A DNA stretch of 48,302 nucleotides from Escherichia phage vB_EcoD_Opt-719, in the sequence record OL539451.1; one strand, given 5' to 3'. Position numbers and translations under genes: made by a program. The notes beneath the pieces were generated by a model. It was not told the origin of the DNA, searched no databases, and saw only the letters and a list, made by a program, of their open reading frames with translations. Within the stretch, counting starts at the first letter, position 1, and each line of letters starts with the position of its first letter. Positions 1-48,302 of the stretch are shown here, in pieces.

Positions 1-73
1 TATAGCATCAATATTTGGGGTTATTGTCGGATTTACTATAATTTACAACATCTGGAAGATTAGGAGTTAAGCT

Positions 74-589
74 ATGTCAGAAGAGAAAAAGATTCACCAG
101 AAGATAGGGAACTTCAAGGAGCTCTATAATAAGAAGTATGGCGACATTGCCAATCTGAAAATTAACCACAAGTTCACGCCAGAGCAGGTGTTCGATTTGG
201 CTGTTAAGTACTTCACGTGGGCAGAAGAACAAGCAATCAAAGCAATTGAGACGGCCAGCTTCCAGGGTATCGTAACTGAGAACCTTATTCACAAGCCGCG
301 AGTATTTACGATAACTGGGTTCCAGCTGTTCTGCGGCGTAGGTCATAATGCTATCAGCAAGTGGCGCTCATCGCCTGGGTTCGATGAGGTCATGGAGTTC
401 GTTGACTCGGTCATCTTTGAGCAGAAGTATCAGCTGGGTGTTAACAACATCGTCAACCCCGGACTGATTGGCAAAGACCTTGGCATCGATAAGCCGCAAG
501 AGGTTAACATCAACAATGCTTCTAATGCCGTGGTAAACGATGAGGAAGCAATGAAGGCCGCCCTGACTTCGGTAATGGAAAAACTATGA
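74..589 (+). CDS. putative terminase small subunit
   Basis: 171-aa ORF, AGGAG RBS at 62-66, immediately upstream of the terminase large subunit gene; assignment by position only. Confidence 0.45.
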   Translation: MSEEKKIHQKIGNFKELYNKKYGDIANLKINHKFTPEQVFDLAVKYFTWAEEQAIKAIETASFQGIVTENLIHKPRVFTITGFQLFCGVGHNAISKWRSSPGFDEVMEFVDSVIFEQKYQLGVNNIVNPGLIGKDLGIDKPQEVNINNASNAVVNDEEAMKAALTSVMEKL

Positions 590-690
590 AAATACTAAAA
601 TCTATACTGGCATACTACGTCCTTTCTTGCATGGCATTCACTAGCGGCTTTCTTATTGGTGTAATTATTGGAGCAATAAAAAATCTATGA
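586..690 (+). CDS. hypothetical small hydrophobic peptide (34 aa)
   Basis: ATG 586 overlaps upstream stop (ATGA) and its TGA overlaps ATG 687 (ATGA); MKILKSILAYYVLSCMAFTSGFLIGVIIGAIKNL is TM-like; below ORF-track cutoff. Confidence 0.3.
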   Translation: MKILKSILAYYVLSCMAFTSGFLIGVIIGAIKNL

Positions 691-2738: not shown

Positions 2739-4007
2739 ATGGTAAAAGCAGACAGCTACGCAAACATCTTTCTTAACGGGAGTGATGGTAGCGAGATTTA
2801 CGGAAGGTTTGGCGGCCTTGGCTTAACAGCTCCAGCGCAGCTTGAGCAGCTTTACGTCAGTAGCGCACTGGTTCGTCGAATTATTGATATCGTGCCAGAG
2901 GTTGCACTTGGCGCTGGCTTTAACATTGAGGGTATCGACGATGAAGGTGCTTTCTGGTCGCGCTGGGATGATTTAGACCTTTCAGATAGTGTAATCGACG
3001 CACTGGCGTGGGCAAGATTATACGGTGGAGCTGCTGTAGTGGCAATTGTCAAGGATGGCAGGGCGCTAACTAGCCAGGTTAGGGAGGGAGCTGAACTTGA
3101 AACTATCCGCGTCTACGACCGACAGCAAATTAAGGTTCAGACTCGAGAGGAGAATCCACGTAACGCGCGATTTGGAAAGCCAGTTACCTATCGCATTACG
3201 CCAAATGGTTCGGCCACATTCTACGACGTGCATTACACTCGCTGCCACATCATCGATGGCGAAAGGGTTCCGAACAACCTACGCCGCAACAACGATGGTT
3301 GGGGCGCAAGCGTGCTAACTGGTGACTTAATCGACGCGATTGACGACTATCAGAACTGTGAGAGACTGGCTACTCAGTTACTTCGTCGAAAGCAACAGGC
3401 TGTGTGGAAAGCGAAAGGTTTGGCTGATTTATGCGATGATTCTGATGGATTTGGTGCAGCTCGCTTACGCCTGGCGCAGGTTGATAATAACAGCGGCGTT
3501 GGTCAGGCTATTGGTATTGATGCAGAGAGTGAAGAATATGACGTTCTTAACTCTGACATTGGTGGTATTGATGCATTCTTGAGCCAGAAGTTCGACAGAA
3601 TCGTTGCCCTGAGCGGCATCCATGAAATCATTCTCAAGGCCAAGAATACTGGAGGTGTATCAGCTAGCCAAAACACAGCCCTTGAGACTTTCTATGGTTA
3701 TGTTGACCGCAAGCGCAAGTCAGACCTGCTTCCTTTACTTGGTTTCCTGATTCAATTTATTGTCACTCAGGACGAATGGTCAGTTGAATTTAATCCACTA
3801 TCTCAAGTTAGCGATAAAGATAAATCTGAGATTCTAGAGAAGAACGTTAACTCAGTTTCAGCTCTTGTTGCTGGTGGCGTGATGAATACTGATGAAGCCC
3901 GTGATACACTACGAGCTATTGCGCCAGAGGTTAAGCTGCAAGATGGTGATATTGAGCAAACCGCTCAGGGGAAAACAGTCGAGGAGGTAGTGATTAATGA
4001 AGAGTAA
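2739..4007 (+). CDS. putative portal protein
   Basis: 422-aa ORF directly after terminase region, acidic C-terminus; portal call by position and size, family not verified. Confidence 0.55.
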   Translation: MVKADSYANIFLNGSDGSEIYGRFGGLGLTAPAQLEQLYVSSALVRRIIDIVPEVALGAGFNIEGIDDEGAFWSRWDDLDLSDSVIDALAWARLYGGAAVVAIVKDGRALTSQVREGAELETIRVYDRQQIKVQTREENPRNARFGKPVTYRITPNGSATFYDVHYTRCHIIDGERVPNNLRRNNDGWGASVLTGDLIDAIDDYQNCERLATQLLRRKQQAVWKAKGLADLCDDSDGFGAARLRLAQVDNNSGVGQAIGIDAESEEYDVLNSDIGGIDAFLSQKFDRIVALSGIHEIILKAKNTGGVSASQNTALETFYGYVDRKRKSDLLPLLGFLIQFIVTQDEWSVEFNPLSQVSDKDKSEILEKNVNSVSALVAGGVMNTDEARDTLRAIAPEVKLQDGDIEQTAQGKTVEEVVINEE

Positions 4008-5106
4008 AATGCGTTATGACAGCGCTAAAGTAAAAGCCCGTTTCGATGAGAACGGGTTTCTAGTGGACACTCCAGTGGTTGCTCGTGTTGGTGTTCAAAC
4101 ATACTACATGCCAGATGGCTCAGAGCGCCGAGAGTTCCGACCAGCATCAGAGGTGTTTAAATCCGATTCCCTGCAAAGCTATCAGGGCAAGCCGCTTACG
4201 CTTGGTCATGTAGTTGTTAATTCAGATAACGCCAAGGATGTTGTAGTTGGAGCAGTATCTGGTGCAGCTATGCGTCAGGATTCTACAGTTGTCGTTCCTC
4301 TAACAGTTTACGATAAGCAGGCAATAGAAAAGGCTAAGTCTGGCGTTGCTGGTGAGCTATCGGTTGGCTATAACACTGTTGATATTGAGTCTCCTGGCTG
4401 GGGTAGTAACGAAACGGGTGAGTATAAGCTTGATGGAGAGTACGCAAGCCAGGATGATATCCCTGCTGATTGGGTACGCTTTGATGCCCTGCAAACAAAC
4501 ATCGTTGTGAACCACATTGCTCTGGTATATAAAGGCCGCGCGCAAGTAGCTAAACTGAATCTGGACGCGGAACAGGAAAACCCGTATACTGATACCGTTC
4601 AATCAAATAAAGAGGATAAATTGATGATTAAGATTAAACTGGATGGCGAGCAGGAGTTCGAAATCGCCCCGGAAGTTGCTAAGCACATCGAAGCTGTTAA
4701 AGCTGATGCAGAACAGGCAAAAGCAAAAGCTGACACCCTTGAAGCTGAGCGTGACGCACTGAAAGCTAAAGTTGATGGCATTCCTGCTGAAATTGAATCT
4801 GCCGTAGCGAAAGCTAAAGCTGATGCTGACGAACTGGCCGCTCTGGTTGCTACCGCTGCAGAAGCTGGCGTTAAAGCTGATGGTATGGATGCTAAAGCAA
4901 TCAAAGTTGCTTACGTTAAAGAAGTATCCGGCCTTGACGTTGCAGAGAAATCTGACGCATACATCGATGCGGCCTTTGATATCGCTAAAGATAGTGATAA
5001 AATGGCTGAAGTCCGCAAAGCAGTTGTTGCTGCGGATAAATCTGACGCTGCCGACGCGCCTAAGAAATTAGACCCGCGCGCTCGCCTCGCTAAATTGAAA
5101 AAATAA
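3997..5106 (+). CDS. putative head maturation protease/scaffolding protein
   Basis: 369 aa; globular N-terminal domain then long Ala/Lys/Glu/Asp-rich coiled-coil-like C-terminus; GAGGAGG RBS; between portal and capsid genes. Confidence 0.45.
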   Translation: MKSKMRYDSAKVKARFDENGFLVDTPVVARVGVQTYYMPDGSERREFRPASEVFKSDSLQSYQGKPLTLGHVVVNSDNAKDVVVGAVSGAAMRQDSTVVVPLTVYDKQAIEKAKSGVAGELSVGYNTVDIESPGWGSNETGEYKLDGEYASQDDIPADWVRFDALQTNIVVNHIALVYKGRAQVAKLNLDAEQENPYTDTVQSNKEDKLMIKIKLDGEQEFEIAPEVAKHIEAVKADAEQAKAKADTLEAERDALKAKVDGIPAEIESAVAKAKADADELAALVATAAEAGVKADGMDAKAIKVAYVKEVSGLDVAEKSDAYIDAAFDIAKDSDKMAEVRKAVVAADKSDAADAPKKLDPRARLAKLKK

Positions 5107-17139: not shown

Positions 17140-17149
17140 GGAGTTGAAA

Positions 17150-17242
17150 ATGAAATTATTGTGTGCTTATTTGATATTTATATTTTTGTCAATGTTTGGA
17201 TTGTCATTAACATTAATTCTCAATATGGCTGGTGTTTTATGA
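17150..17242 (+). CDS. hypothetical small hydrophobic peptide (30 aa)
   Basis: AAGGAG RBS 6 nt upstream of ATG 17150; stop overlaps ATG 17239 (ATGA); MKLLCAYLIFIFLSMFGLSLTLILNMAGVL. Confidence 0.3.
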   Translation: MKLLCAYLIFIFLSMFGLSLTLILNMAGVL

Positions 17243-23273: not shown

Positions 23274-23378
23274 TTAGAAACCGTTAAAGTTTGAAGCCAG
23301 CAGCAGAACCCAAACGAAGAAGCTGGTAGTTGCTACGCCGAAGATTGCAGAGATTAAGTTAGTGGTTAAGTTAGTCAT
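23274..23378 (-). CDS. hypothetical small membrane peptide (34 aa)
   Basis: MTNLTTNLISAIFGVATTSFFVWVLLLASNFNGF; AAGGA RBS; stop abuts lipoprotein start; same minus-strand operon. Confidence 0.3.
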   Translation of the reverse strand: MTNLTTNLISAIFGVATTSFFVWVLLLASNFNGF

Positions 23379-23444
23379 TTTGTATTCCTTAGTAAGTATG
23401 TTTCGTTTCGATGGAGTAACTATAGCAAAGGCTTCAGCGGTAGT

Positions 23445-23465
23445 CTTTAGCAAATCGTGCTATTT
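23445..23465 (-). promoter_or_regulatory. promoter-cassette motif copy (minus orientation)
   Basis: reverse complement AAATAGCACGATTTGCTAAAG followed on minus strand by TATAGT and CATCGAAACGAAAC leader toward the lipoprotein operon. Confidence 0.45.
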
Positions 23466-24864: not shown

Positions 24865-25824
24865 ATGAGCTTCAAGGTTTACACTAACGATGAGTTAACC
24901 AACGAAGCCTACCATGAGGAGTCTGACCATGTGTCTGGCTCTGGTCTGGCTCACATCTTCTCAACTTGCCCAGCCGCATACAAATACGCTGAGCATGATG
25001 ATAGCAGTAAAGCGTTAAAGTTCGGTACATTGGCTCACACGATGGTTTTGGAGAGCTCTGTATTTGATGCGACATACTATCGTCAGCCAGCGCAGGAAGA
25101 GTTTGAAGACCTGATTACCAGTAAGGCTGCATTAGCAGCAAGACTGAAAGCGATGGGAATTGCTGGAACTTCTGGAAAGGATTACCCTGAATTAATGGAG
25201 ATACTGGCACTGACTGGTGAATCACTCAACGTATGGTGGGATATCCAGCGCTCTAGCGAGATTAAAGCAGAAGGCCGCGAGATTGTATCAGCTAAGGACT
25301 TTGACACCGTACAGGCGATGCGAGAGGTTTTGTGTGGAATTCCTGCTTACAATGCAATAGTTAACAGTGAAACCGCTCAGCGTGAACTATCAATTTTCGG
25401 TGAGATTAACGATTGTGGAGTGAAGGTAAGACTGGACCATGTTGATGTAGTTGGTGATGTTGTTTATATCCGAGATTACAAAACAACTAGCGACGCTTCT
25501 CCGTCAGGTTTCGGTCGCCTCGCCTTTAAGCATGGTTACTTGTTAAAGATGGCACTTCAACATGACTTATTTGTGCGAGCCTTTAATGAAAAGAGGCGAG
25601 TTGTTGTTCAGCTATTGGCGCAGGAAAAAAAGAGCCCGTACCTACCAATGTGCTACACGATAACAAAAGAACAGTTAAGGGTTGGTAGGTTGCAATACAT
25701 GAGTGCGCTTTCTACATACAAGCATTGTAAGAAGCTTGATATCTGGCCTGGGTATGGGTTCGGTGAAACAGAGATGGAATTGCAGATACCTGAATATGAG
25801 ATGAAGAAATATGAATTGGCATGA
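24865..25824 (+). CDS. putative PD-(D/E)XK recombination exonuclease
   Basis: 319 aa; DHVDVVGDVVYIRDYKTT (D...DxK-like) and downstream QHDLF motif; adjacent to Erf-like and SSB genes. Confidence 0.5.
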   Translation: MSFKVYTNDELTNEAYHEESDHVSGSGLAHIFSTCPAAYKYAEHDDSSKALKFGTLAHTMVLESSVFDATYYRQPAQEEFEDLITSKAALAARLKAMGIAGTSGKDYPELMEILALTGESLNVWWDIQRSSEIKAEGREIVSAKDFDTVQAMREVLCGIPAYNAIVNSETAQRELSIFGEINDCGVKVRLDHVDVVGDVVYIRDYKTTSDASPSGFGRLAFKHGYLLKMALQHDLFVRAFNEKRRVVVQLLAQEKKSPYLPMCYTITKEQLRVGRLQYMSALSTYKHCKKLDIWPGYGFGETEMELQIPEYEMKKYELA

Positions 25825-26266
25825 TATTTTTGAGTATATAGATGGATGCATAATATGGCGTGCTAGTGGTAATGTTGCTGGTTACAAACGAAAGGATGGT
25901 TATGTGATTGTGACAATAAATGGTAAGAAAATACTAGCGCATCGGATAATATACGAAATGAATAACGGAGATATAGAGCCAGGTATGCAAATTGACCATA
26001 TTGACCACAATCCATCAAACAACAGGATTGAAAACCTTAGGGTGGTTAACCACCAGGAGAACCAATCCAATAAGTCAAAGCAGTCAAATAACACTTCAGG
26101 GGTTACTGGCGTTTGGCTACATAAGAAATCTGGAAGGTTTGTAGCTGAAATAATGGTTGAAAAGAAGAAGATACATATAGGCTACTTTGATGACAAGCTG
26201 AATGCGGCAAAGGCTAGAAAGGATGCTGAAATTAAGTTTGGGTTTCATAAAAATCATGGAAAATAG
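25811..26266 (+). CDS. HNH homing endonuclease with AP2-like DNA-binding domain
   Basis: HNH motif DHIDHNPSNNRIENLRVVNHQEN; C-terminal GVTGVW...GRFVAEI...IHIGYF AP2-like segment; inserted between exonuclease and Erf-like genes. Confidence 0.8.
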   Translation: MNWHDIFEYIDGCIIWRASGNVAGYKRKDGYVIVTINGKKILAHRIIYEMNNGDIEPGMQIDHIDHNPSNNRIENLRVVNHQENQSNKSKQSNNTSGVTGVWLHKKSGRFVAEIMVEKKKIHIGYFDDKLNAAKARKDAEIKFGFHKNHGK

Positions 26267-35677: not shown

Positions 35678-35746
35678 ATGAAAACATTACTACCGTTGAT
35701 GGCTATGCCATTAACCTTTATAATCATGTACTTCATAATCTGCTAA
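35678..35746 (+). CDS. hypothetical leader micro-ORF (22 aa, hydrophobic)
   Basis: occupies the usual first-cistron position of the promoter cassette (GAGAGAAG RBS); MKTLLPLMAMPLTFIIMYFIIC; precedes the HTH-phosphoesterase gene. Confidence 0.3.
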   Translation: MKTLLPLMAMPLTFIIMYFIIC

Positions 35747-37648: not shown

Positions 37649-37709
37649 GTTTATGTCAAAGGCTAATGTCTGGTATTATTTAACCAAATCAACTAAACAA
37701 GGCCGCAAC

Positions 37710-37925
37710 ATGAAACATTTCTATGACGCAGCCGCCTTGTCCGGTAGCGGAGTAGCTATGGGCGGCGGTTTATCTGACAACACAATCATCGGCATTATCG
37801 GATTAGTTATCGCCGTATGCTTTGGTATTTTTGGCGCATGGCTGCGCTGGCGTGACAGTAAAGCGCTCCATAAGGCACTTGAAGATGGAGACATCCGAGA
37901 GGCAATGAGAATCAGGAGCAAATGA
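37710..37925 (+). CDS. putative holin (single-TM, possibly pinholin)
   Basis: 71 aa from ATG 37710; one hydrophobic helix IIGIIGLVIAVCFGIFGAWL and charged C-terminus; immediately upstream of lysozyme; alternative upstream ATG 37653. Confidence 0.55.
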   Translation: MKHFYDAAALSGSGVAMGGGLSDNTIIGIIGLVIAVCFGIFGAWLRWRDSKALHKALEDGDIREAMRIRSK

Positions 37926-38407
37926 TGAGCATCAAAAATAAGGTAATTGGTTCGGCAGTAGCTGGTGCCATGGCGTTAGCGGTTCCGTTCCTTAATGAGC
38001 ATGAAGGCGTTGAGTACAAGCCTTACAGAGATATTGCTGGGGTATGGACCACATGCGCTGGAATTACTGGTCCTGACGTTATTCTAGGTAAGGTTTATAC
38101 TAAGAAAGAGTGTGACGCGCTTCTTGCAAAGCACTTAGCAATTCATCAGCGCGCTGTTGATAAAGCTCTGAATGTTAATGTTCCAGTTAGCACCAGGGCG
38201 GCACTGTACAGTTTTTCATTCAATGTGGGAACCAGTGCAATGCGCAACTCGACTGTTATTAGGCGCATGAATCGTGGCGATATCCGCGGAGGATGCGAGG
38301 CGCTATCTATGTGGAATAAAATTAGCGTTGGTGGCAAGAAGGTTGTTAGTAAAGGCCTGGTTAACAGGCGTAACGCGGAGATTAAACTATGCGTCTCGGA
38401 ATTGTAA
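37922..38407 (+). CDS. endolysin, phage lysozyme (GH24-like), probable SAR type
   Basis: EGVEYKPYRDIAGVWTTCAGITG resembles P22/T4-type lysozyme catalytic region; Gly/Ala-rich weakly hydrophobic N-terminus VIGSAVAGAMALAVPF. Confidence 0.8.
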   Translation: MMSIKNKVIGSAVAGAMALAVPFLNEHEGVEYKPYRDIAGVWTTCAGITGPDVILGKVYTKKECDALLAKHLAIHQRAVDKALNVNVPVSTRAALYSFSFNVGTSAMRNSTVIRRMNRGDIRGGCEALSMWNKISVGGKKVVSKGLVNRRNAEIKLCVSEL

Positions 38408-38793
38408 TTATTGCAACTGTATTACTGACTGGTTGCTCTGGCCTATCGGCTATTTCTGATTTTTTACCAGCAAAGGATGGCGTCGAGGCAACAGCGCAGG
38501 TGGGTGAATCTAACCAGAAAACAGGGGTTGGGCTATCAAATCAGACAGACAAATCTAGCTCTATAGAAAGCGATATGCGCAACTCAACTAACAGAGACGT
38601 GGACTCATCAAGCCAGAAAAAGACCGCCGCTACTGGCCTATCAGCTAACACAATAACGGCTGAAAAGATTGAAATTCATAGTACTGAAAACTCAGGGGTA
38701 GATTCATTAGTCTGGGGTATTCTTGCCGGGCTAGTTTCTTGTTTGTTAACTTACTTCACTTTAAGATTTGCAGGAAACAAAAAAGGAGCCTAA
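38389..38793 (+). CDS. unimolecular spanin-like protein (lipoprotein with C-terminal TM)
   Basis: N-terminal lipobox LLTGC and C-terminal TM helix LVWGILAGLVSCLLTYFTL; last gene of lysis cassette. Confidence 0.65.
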   Translation: MRLGIVIIATVLLTGCSGLSAISDFLPAKDGVEATAQVGESNQKTGVGLSNQTDKSSSIESDMRNSTNRDVDSSSQKKTAATGLSANTITAEKIEIHSTENSGVDSLVWGILAGLVSCLLTYFTLRFAGNKKGA

Positions 38794-39338: not shown

Positions 39339-39437
39339 AAATCACCCATAAATTAATGATAATATGCAAAACAAAATACTCATCAAATGAATAGGAATTA
39401 GAGAGTACATGACAAAATTTTCAACCTTTCTCATAAA

Positions 39438-47296: not shown

Positions 47297-47489
47297 TCCA
47301 TTCAAGAGTTTCGCTGTTTCTATGGGATGGACTTGCAGGAAGCATGTATTCGTACTCTTTAGGCATATCAAGTGGTATGAGATTGAGTACTACCGCAAAG
47401 GATATAGAAGTAAGCTGGTATGTCGCAATTGCAATAAAATGATTTACTCTAAGATTGATTTTAATGATAAATTTGGATTGCCACTATGA
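47289..47489 (+). CDS. hypothetical protein (66 aa), possible Cys-containing small zinc-binding protein
   Basis: start ATG 47289 (track TTG 47181 overlaps previous gene); contains WTCRKH and CRNCNK. Confidence 0.35.
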   Translation: MINPFKSFAVSMGWTCRKHVFVLFRHIKWYEIEYYRKGYRSKLVCRNCNKMIYSKIDFNDKFGLPL

Positions 47490-47554
47490 CTGAACTATCA
47501 ATATGGTTCCTGGCTGGCATGCTGACTTGGATTTATTTCGTGGTCATGGCTTGA
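47486..47554 (+). CDS. hypothetical hydrophobic micro-ORF (22 aa)
   Basis: ATG overlaps upstream TGA (ATGA); MTELSIWFLAGMLTWIYFVVMA. Confidence 0.25.
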   Translation: MTELSIWFLAGMLTWIYFVVMA

Positions 47555-47746
47555 CTCAAATGTTTAATATGGTTAGTATTAAACACGTAGACGGCAATGA
47601 CCGTAACGCGCATCGCGGAGATGAAAGCCGATAGCCGGGCTGGATAAAGATACGAGGCAACTACCGCATCGCCAAAAGCAAAGTGTAAGTCGGACTTGCG
47701 GAGCATTGTGAAAGCTCGCCGGATTCCGTAACCGGCACCTATTCAA

Positions 47747-48204: not shown

Positions 48205-48229
48205 GACTTTTAAAACAGGAGGAATGACA

Positions 48230-48292
48230 ATGACAGGCTATCAACCAAAACCACACGATGGCGAAATAAAACCACCGCCAAGGAGACCTTGA
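48230..48292 (+). CDS. hypothetical micro-ORF (20 aa, Pro-rich)
   Basis: AGGAGG RBS 7 nt upstream; TGA overlaps next ATG (ATGA). Confidence 0.25.
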   Translation: MTGYQPKPHDGEIKPPPRRP

Positions 48293-48302
48293 TGATTGAG
48301 TC
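48292..48302 (+). CDS. 5' end of a gene truncated by the window edge (continues in frame at 1..70 if the molecule is circular)
   Basis: AGGAG RBS 6 nt upstream of ATG 48292; joined to window start gives 26-aa TM-like ORF MIESIASIFGVIVGFTIIYNIWKIRS ending at TAA 68-70. Confidence 0.35.

Follow-up and report, generated by a model that had tools for sequence, protein, structure and literature searches.

The genome of Escherichia phage vB_EcoD_Opt-719 (OL539451.1; the whole stretch of 48,302 nucleotides is called the window here) carries, between the genes for the small and large terminase subunits (terS and terL), an open reading frame (ORF) of 34 codons at positions 586–690, the micro-ORF of this text. 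We consider it fairly probable that this is a genuine accessory gene on an inserted AT-rich segment, translationally relayed between its two neighbors and coding for a single-pass membrane micropeptide. Positions 1–2400 of the window match Escherichia phage vB_EcoD_Sadiya (OL539467) with 100% identity, as they do its near-clones PhleaSolo and Opt-79; these are T1-like phages of the family Drexlerviridae, subfamily Rogunavirinae. The micro-ORF is already in GenBank as the hypothetical protein SADIYA_2. An earlier note, made from the letters of the sequence, had proposed a 105-nt ORF with an ATGA at both ends, and this is what we find (coordinates are collected in Table 1). In the first overlap the terS TGA (587–589) shares bases with the micro-ORF ATG (586–588), and in the second the micro-ORF TGA (688–690) does so with the terL ATG (687–689). 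The N-terminus of TerL agrees with that of its relatives, and therefore the start at 687 is correct; TerS has 92–95% amino acid identity to its counterparts in Sd1, Rogue1 and e4/1c.

The arrangement found in the relatives explains the double overlap. In Rogue1, JK06, phiKP26, Sf12 and two metagenome contigs, the terL of the latter being 93–94% identical to that of Sadiya, the terS stop directly overlaps the terL start (CTATGA), and the junction reads ...AAACT ATGA AGACATTAG... or ...AAGCT ATGA ATACATTA.... More distant Drexlerviridae are likewise tight, with ATGA, TAATG or a 2–25-nt spacer containing a Shine–Dalgarno (SD) sequence. An ancestral ATGA overlap is therefore interrupted in Sadiya by 101 nt, a segment that was inserted into this lineage (or lost from the relatives). 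In the genome alignment against Rogue1 it appears as a 91-nt gap, the exact borders being blurred by the repeated CTATGAA. The start codon of the micro-ORF occupies the position of the ancestral terL ATG, in the same sequence context. It had been argued in the earlier note that ATGA at both ends was unlikely to be chance. Overall there is indeed more than chance here, but the left ATGA adds no independent evidence, being the ancestral terS/terL overlap that the relatives have; the upstream ATGA is inherited and did not evolve for the micro-ORF. The fact needing explanation is therefore that no stop interrupts the insert and that its frame closes on a new terL ATG. For the Sadiya insert the probability of being open was ca. 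0.10 in dinucleotide shuffles, and one length in three would fall in the required class (2 mod 3); a single open insert, taken alone, is only suggestive. However, five independent, non-homologous inserts at the terS/terL junction are all open, with probabilities of 0.06–0.25 per insert in dinucleotide shuffles and a product of ca. 3e-5. An origin of the insert by duplication of the 5′ end of terL was considered and rejected, since only the 7-nt CTATGAA is repeated and nothing comparable was found in the other inserts. A metagenome survey of terL relatives yielded only three loci, none of them with an insert.

Evidence that the micro-ORF is a coding sequence comes from the phage A110b. A tblastn search of the phage collection with the Sadiya peptide recovered only its clones and one weak match, in A110b, while the A110b peptide recovered only itself, probably through low-complexity masking. 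The A110b ORF lies at the same terS/terL junction and codes for MIKVMKLLLAYYMMLATCFTTGFLIGVMVGLVKLWLI. Aligned with each other, the two peptides score 97 in BLOSUM62 (z = 15.4 relative to shuffled sequences), and the conserved features are a basic N-terminus, LAYY, FTxGFLIGV and the G-x3-G-x3-G spacing. Over the 33 aligned codons 42 of 99 nucleotides differ (14, 7 and 21 at the first, second and third codon positions), and the proportion of differences was 0.79 at synonymous sites (pS; 18 of 23 changed) vs. 0.31 at non-synonymous ones (pN; Fisher p = 9.5e-5). Identical residues amounted to 17 of 33, compared to 9.9 ± 1.9 when the same 42 substitutions were placed at random (P ~0.001). Synonymous sites are saturated while the amino acids have been kept, and we therefore infer that the peptide is under purifying selection. 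Conservation of the amino acids beyond that of the DNA marks the micro-ORF, as far as comparison of sequences can tell, as a genuine protein-coding gene. The earlier note had looked to related phages for conservation of the ORF and not just of the DNA, which the A110b homologue with its saturated synonymous sites provides; the adverse outcome that it named, a spacer kept without the reading frame, was seen in none of the relatives inspected, where either the spacer was absent or an ORF or an HNH gene stood there.

The BASEL phages JulesPiccard (Bas03) and AugustePiccard (Bas01) have a shorter annotated ORF, MKG[LF]IKLF..YYLLTS.SLCVFMLVVKLWLI, a probable distant relative; compared with A110b, that of JulesPiccard has z = 4.5, to which the overlap with terL common to both contributes in part. 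The dN/dS values were also below 1 for other pairs with inserts at the same site, 0.37 for JulesPiccard/AugustePiccard and 0.18 for MM01/PCEc3. OzMSK and Msk have flanks 96% identical to those of A110b without the insert, and the clean indel (AACAATG|...|TTTAGT) indicates that the gain or loss of the A110b insert was recent and precise.

We surveyed the terS/terL junction in ca. 120 of the more than 200 matching records, plus IMG/VR and metagenome loci, and found it to be a hot spot of insertion. The occupants (Table 1) include short ORFs in Sd1, e4/1c, MM01, PCEc3 and BEK6 and HNH endonuclease genes in many relatives; PsgS01F probably carries the same ORF as MM01 and PCEc3, its alignment rows being identical to those of PCEc3. 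The BEK6 ORF is soluble, so that peptides other than hydrophobic ones also occur at the hot spot. Among occupants of different phages, homology was undetectable except for Sadiya–A110b (strong) and A110b–JulesPiccard (the z value given above). In every junction seen, the occupant's stop overlaps or abuts the terL start, and no spacer without an open frame was found in the junctions surveyed. In the Braunvirinae-type junctions (A110b, both Piccard phages, MM01, PCEc3 and BEK6) the ORF of the insert takes over the SD that serves terL in relatives without insert (GAGGGTATAACA-ATG; GATGG in BEK6). The terL start then falls within the last codons of the insert in the cases with hydrophobic ORFs, and 1 nt past the stop in BEK6.

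With regard to the product, the proposal of a peptide resembling a single transmembrane segment was borne out by two predictions. The best 19-residue Kyte–Doolittle window scored 2.10 (threshold 1.6), with a grand average of hydropathy of 1.46, and AlphaFold2 gave one helix over residues 2–33 (mean predicted local distance difference test score 92). The hydrophobic core of 26 residues is preceded by Lys2 and Lys5 and followed by Lys32, and the peptide ends in KNL. Its hydrophobicity was above that of a composition-matched null (P = 0.007). Hydrophobic segment and predicted helix are thus those of a putative single-pass small membrane protein. The helix would probably reside in the inner membrane with its N-terminus inside, by the positive-inside rule, and, as 34 residues would be released before emerging from the ribosome, insertion into the membrane would have to be post-translational. 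The conserved GxxxGxxxG face suggests that, late in infection, the helix associates with itself or packs on a membrane protein of the host or of the phage. The micro-ORF is regarded as dispensable, i.e., accessory, because close relatives lack it. The peptide would most likely tune some membrane-linked interaction with the host (exclusion, defense or counter-defense, lysis timing), and would take no part in DNA packaging.

The way in which such an ORF could be expressed is suggested by the signals around it. SD pairing was −3.3 kcal/mol at the micro-ORF start and −5.6 kcal/mol at terL, the latter 13 nt upstream of the ATG; terL has −3.1 in Rogue1 and −1.5 in Sd1. Overlaps at both ends together with weak or badly spaced SDs at the downstream starts are what would be expected of an overlap-coupled cistron, and four-base overlaps are frequent in this genome (13 of 70 same-strand junctions). 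We propose a two-step relay, in which ribosomes ending terS would re-initiate on the micro-ORF, read its 34 codons, stop at the UGA and re-initiate on terL. In the Sadiya lineage TerL would then be made mainly by ribosomes passed on from terS, and the insert could survive at the junction only as a cistron that carries ribosomes across. A nonsense or frameshift mutation in it would starve the phage of TerL, and for that reason the frame would be kept open. The relay accounts for the open frame and the double overlap but not for the particular residues that have been kept, so that the peptide itself would have to matter.

Several observations weigh against the reading as a genuine accessory gene. 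The identity between Sadiya and A110b is 52% for the peptide vs. 63% for TerS and 79% for TerL, so that the peptide appears to evolve faster than its neighbors, although still under constraint. Clearly homologous lineages are only two (the Sadiya clones and A110b), and the test of selection covers 33 codons in a protein-level alignment. The hydrophobicity of the peptide is due in part to T-rich composition; the T content of the inserts is 34–49%, and for several of them hydrophobicity was unexceptional among open shuffles. In addition, the unrelated ORFs at the site, including the soluble one of BEK6, and the close relatives without any insert indicate that the site needs no particular peptide. 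A reading that we judge unlikely but worth serious thought is that the insert is passenger DNA whose frame is kept open solely because terL lacks an adequate ribosome-binding site and relies on ribosomes coming from terS, the hydrophobic peptide being a functionless by-product of T-rich sequence. The weak SDs of terL in Rogue1 and Sd1 and the 13-nt spacing in Sadiya fit it, as do the T-rich composition and the variety of the inserts, which are lineage-restricted orphans and include the non-homologous ORFs of Sd1, e4/1c and MM01/PCEc3 besides that of BEK6. However, selection against stops alone would not keep LAYY, FTxGFLIGV and the spaced glycines when most synonymous sites have changed, nor does it lead one to expect the dN/dS values below 1 in two further pairs or a Sadiya peptide more hydrophobic than its composition-matched null. 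These observations argue for the genuine accessory gene.

The presence of HNH genes at the same junction in several relatives, at what is clearly an insertion hot spot, raises the question of a link with homing endonucleases: the insert could be the stump of a decayed HNH gene, or could persist because it disrupts the target of HNH enzymes that co-infecting relatives encode at the same junction. We find this very improbable, as blastn-short and tblastx comparisons of all micro-inserts with three of the HNH inserts gave only chance-level matches (E ≥ 0.04) and the A110b homologue shows coding constraint on the micro-ORF frame. Even less credible is that the spacer acts as RNA or DNA (an attenuator, a small RNA or a pac-related site) with the ORF incidental to it. 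The segment is AT-rich and adjoins terS, and pac sites of headful-packaging phages are often located near terS. However, the predicted RNA fold was no better than that of shuffles (z = −1.2), neither a terminator nor a plus-strand promoter-like site was found in the insert (560–700 scanned), Rfam gave only a chance-level miRNA match, close relatives package without the insert, and the substitution pattern is that of coding sequence. We give hardly any credence to a −1 slip on GAAAAAC (579–585) that would join TerS to the peptide in a membrane-anchored variant: relative to terS the micro-ORF is read in the −1 frame, and five consecutive A stand before the junction, but this run is missing in Sd1 (GAGAAGCTATGA) and Rogue1 (GATAAACTATGA), in A110b and the Piccard phages terS and the ORF are kept apart by a stop codon and by a spacer that has an SD of its own, and no stimulatory structure was found.

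Searches for known families gave no relative of the peptide. Profile searches in Pfam-A and PHROGs v4 found no family (best E-values 0.3–0.9), and phmmer against 1.84 billion representatives returned the peptide itself plus two repeat-driven matches. One of these was the translation of a tandem repeat and was treated as chance. The other, a 223-aa protein with four FWYVLQCIAFGxGY[FL]AK repeats that resemble residues 10–28 of the peptide, was provisionally judged to be a chance likeness of short hydrophobic repeats (summed E = 3e-4, weak repeats, no Pfam identity). The micro-ORF peptide and gp52 of Sd1 are both singletons at 90% identity among ca. 15 billion proteins, and the degenerate motif YY-N18-FTxGFLIGV had no match in IMG/VR, in JGI metagenome contigs or in 185,579 species genomes. 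The passages on terminases, small ORFs and homing genes of the 2026 comparison of Drexlerviridae (PMC13164509) do not include the micro-ORF.

Among known systems, the nearest include morons, the extra genes that, in what Juhala and Hendrix are said to have described in 2000 for lambdoid phages, lie between genes that are adjacent in related phages. Like them, the micro-ORF is present or absent between conserved neighbors, deviates in GC content, is dispensable cargo and has its borders at gene boundaries. Unlike them, it is of ca. 100 nt, belongs to the late operon of a virulent phage and is without a promoter or terminator of its own; it would be expressed by overlap coupling, and the essential downstream gene would come to depend on it. 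When the features of morons were tested, insertion and deviant composition were thus found, but not an own promoter and terminator, and the micro-ORF looks like a very small promoterless moron, presumably expressed as an overlap-coupled cistron. With ATGA/TAATG genes of the termination–reinitiation type (including terS–terL of the relatives) it shares the four-base overlaps at both ends and the weak downstream SDs. It would differ from the usual coupled overlap in that a whole extra cistron has been set into an existing one, giving a relay of two steps. The HNH genes of AHP24, phiEB49, JeanPiccard and BEK2/3 use the same insertion site and have a stop that overlaps or abuts the terL start. They differ in being ca. 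500 nt long, in their HNH domain and in having their own annotated promoter and terminator (AHP24) or a long SD-bearing spacer (phiEB49). Compared with three of the HNH inserts, the micro-ORF showed no similarity above chance level, and it was rejected as a remnant of such genes.

Another comparison is with the small membrane proteins of bacteria and phages and with type I toxins such as TisB, Ibs and Ldr, reportedly treated in the small-protein work of Hemm and Storz. The peptide resembles them in size (20–50 aa), in the single Lys-flanked hydrophobic helix and in the small-xxx-small motif, but no antisense RNA or independent promoter was found and there is no sequence relationship to any family. 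Type I toxin loci are independent transcription units with an overlapping antisense RNA. The micro-ORF was rejected as one of them, as it lies inside the terS–terL operon, has no Rfam family and shows one weak (9/12) minus-strand promoter-like match at 691–664. Holins are found in the lysis cassette beside the endolysin, usually have 60–150 aa and carry a charged C-terminal tail. A holin or antiholin was likewise discarded, for the lysis cassette is elsewhere (37653–38793) and the peptide is much shorter, with KNL at its end. In T7, genes 18.5 and 18.7 (spanins) lie between terS (gene 18) and terL (gene 19). They are also membrane-protein genes between the terminase genes of a virulent coliphage, but their proteins are much larger and have a known role in lysis, for which Sadiya has the cassette just mentioned.

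Table 1. Features of the terS/terL junction, its occupants in related phages and other small ORFs of the window (positions refer to the window unless noted otherwise).
Phage	Feature	Position	Strand	Remarks
Opt-719	terS, terminase small subunit, 171 aa	74–589	+	TGA stop within ATGA 586–589
Opt-719	micro-ORF, 34 aa, MKILKSILAYYVLSCMAFTSGFLIGVIIGAIKNL, predicted single transmembrane helix (SADIYA_2)	586–690	+	ORF list, hydropathy, A110b homologue
Opt-719	101-nt insertion vs. relatives with direct terS/terL overlap (CTATGA)	586–686	+	GC 34% vs. 46–48% in the flanks
Opt-719	ATGA overlap 1, terS stop/micro-ORF start	586–589	+	at the ancestral terL start position; weak SD (GGA)
Opt-719	codons for G21-FLI-G25-VII-G29, GxxxGxxxG glycine-zipper motif	646–672	+	A110b equivalent GFLIGVMVG
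Opt-719	ATGA overlap 2, micro-ORF stop/terL start	687–690	+	only SD-like element GGAG 670–673, 13 nt 5′ of the ATG
Opt-719	terL, terminase large subunit, 522 aa	687–2255	+	N-terminus MNTLAWEEM as in relatives
Sd1	gp52, 37 aa, hydrophobic C-terminus	terS/terL junction		ATGA at both ends; unrelated to the micro-ORF
e4/1c	ORF, 25 aa, MMIRYYIFWFVVPSIAIGALMEMIH	terS/terL junction		ATGA upstream, apparent TTGA downstream
MM01, PCEc3	ORF, 33 aa	terS/terL junction		
BEK6	soluble ORF, 49 aa, MIDAKLSTSMVAGEPFYTLEVFKDGELIHIEGFFDIYKAKSAQRKWWRN	terS/terL junction, 526–675 of the extracted locus		
AHP24, AHS24, AHP42, AKS96, BECP10, phiEB49, JeanPiccard, BEK2/3, 2725-N35, others	HNH endonuclease genes	terS/terL junction		
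Opt-719	ORFa, 22 aa, MTMTGYQPKPHDGEIKPPPRRP, proline-rich, not hydrophobic	48224–48292	+	first ORF of a ca. 145-nt insertion between an AGGAGG SD and the terS ATG
Opt-719	ORFb, 26 aa, MIESIASIFGVIVGFTIIYNIWKIRS, hydrophobic, GxxxG motif	48292–48302, then 1–70	+	TGATG overlap with ORFa
Opt-719	hydrophobic ORF, 30 aa, MKLLCAYLIFIFLSMFGLSLTLILNMAGVL	17150–17242	+	within a 97-nt insertion, 17142–17238, absent from Sd1 and Rogue1
Opt-719	ORF, 30 aa, MRKVENFVMYSLIPIHLMSILFCILSLIYG	39342–39434	−	ATGA overlap with the stop of the upstream 527-aa gene
Opt-719	hydrophobic ORF, 22 aa, MTELSIWFLAGMLTWIYFVVMA	47486–47554		Rogue1: 5 synonymous, 0 non-synonymous changes; Sd1: 1 change
Opt-719	hydrophobic ORF, 22 aa	35678–35746		identical in Rogue1, unannotated there; DNA too similar for a test of selection

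The earlier note had also listed hydrophobic micro-ORFs said to recur along the genome in the same coupled form. All of them exist and are hydrophobic, but the one at 23274–23378 (minus strand) is part of a longer ORF and is not overlap-coupled to the downstream cor-like gene. It makes up the 3′ portion of a 59-aa ORF annotated as “putative lipoprotein” (23274–23453, TTG start), in which an internal ATG with a good AAGGAA SD suggests that the 34-aa version may be the true product. The ORF at 17150–17242 and those across the ends of the window are insertions with respect to both Sd1 and Rogue1, while those at 47486–47554 and 35678–35746 are present in relatives. We could detect no homology of the peptides to one another. 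In total, at least four inserts lie at gene starts in this genome, three of them before late structural or packaging genes, and in the genome alignment such micro-inserts form the lower size range of the gene-sized indels that are usual at gene borders.

The arrangement of the terS/terL junction is repeated before terS, at 17150–17242 and, on the minus strand, at 39342–39434. In the insertion before terS, ORFa captures the SD used by terS in Rogue1 and Sd1, and the 3′ part of ORFb (1–70) contains a new AGGAG SD for terS, whose start is at 74. ORFb runs without a break in the Opt-79 record, with the annotation OPT79_84, whereas the Sadiya record leaves the pair unannotated, as its ends split the cassette. 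Further along, the insertion with the ORF at 17150–17242 was seen in the Sadiya clones and nowhere else; its ORF captures the GGAG SD of a gpK-like tail gene. The tail gene then starts at the ATG 17239 through an ATGA overlap, with the N-terminus MITPKVK (MLTPKVK in Rogue1). Given this start and the Rogue1-like N-terminus, the GTG start in GenBank (17161), which extends the protein into the insert, is probably wrong. A 12-nt direct repeat, GGGTGATTTATG, lies on either side of the minus-strand ORF at 39342–39434, which has a counterpart in Sd1 (27 of 30 aa, unannotated) and none in Rogue1 and is unannotated in any record checked. GenBank annotates ORFs in other frames over two of these small ORFs, SADIYA_80 (ca. 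47502–47633) over 47486–47554 and the 39-aa SADIYA_48 over 35678–35746.

A wider interpretation, which we put forward as a doubtful one, is that in Drexlerviridae short AT-rich inserts at the coupled starts of essential late genes (terS, terL, gpK and others), falling between SD and start codon or within an overlap, become trapped, surviving only if they are translated through, and that these sites repeatedly import or create single-helix micropeptides, some of which are later selected. If so, loss of an insert would be hard, since nothing short of a precise deletion brings back the start of the gene downstream, and the junctions would be a natural nursery for small membrane proteins. The repeated capture of SDs may hint that phages gain, or create, micropeptide genes again and again in this way, which is speculative. 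In itself, the micro-ORF is a tidy example of a common small accessory phage gene and no new kind of system. What the analysis contributes is the comparative proof that an ORF of 34 codons codes, together with the explanation of its double ATGA by insertion into a pre-existing overlap. For the annotation of phages, coupled micro-ORFs should be called and the starts of the genes downstream checked. In phage engineering, imprecise deletion of such a hypothetical ORF could switch off the terminase. For small-protein biology, pairs of phages with and without the insert (e.g., A110b vs. OzMSK) are a compact natural test bed.

Some observations concern the database records themselves. The near-identical genomes OL539467, OL539447 and OL539453 carry three different stated hosts, Serratia marcescens, E. 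coli and Klebsiella pneumoniae. The “Campylobacter phage A110b” (an UNVERIFIED record) is in fact a coliphage-like genome of the Braunvirinae, and “Pseudomonas phage PsgS01F” is an ordinary coliphage-like member of the Drexlerviridae. The host labels of all these records need caution. The prohead-protease ORF of the window (3997–5106, 369 aa) is intact, whereas the GenBank record of Sadiya has a misc_feature split into SADIYA_6 and SADIYA_7; Opt-719 (48302 nt) and the Sadiya record (48303 nt) therefore do not agree at every base. Finally, a clean insertion of 443 nt with respect to both Sd1 and Rogue1 (25816–26258) is an HNH endonuclease gene (SADIYA_34), located between the exonuclease and recombinase genes.

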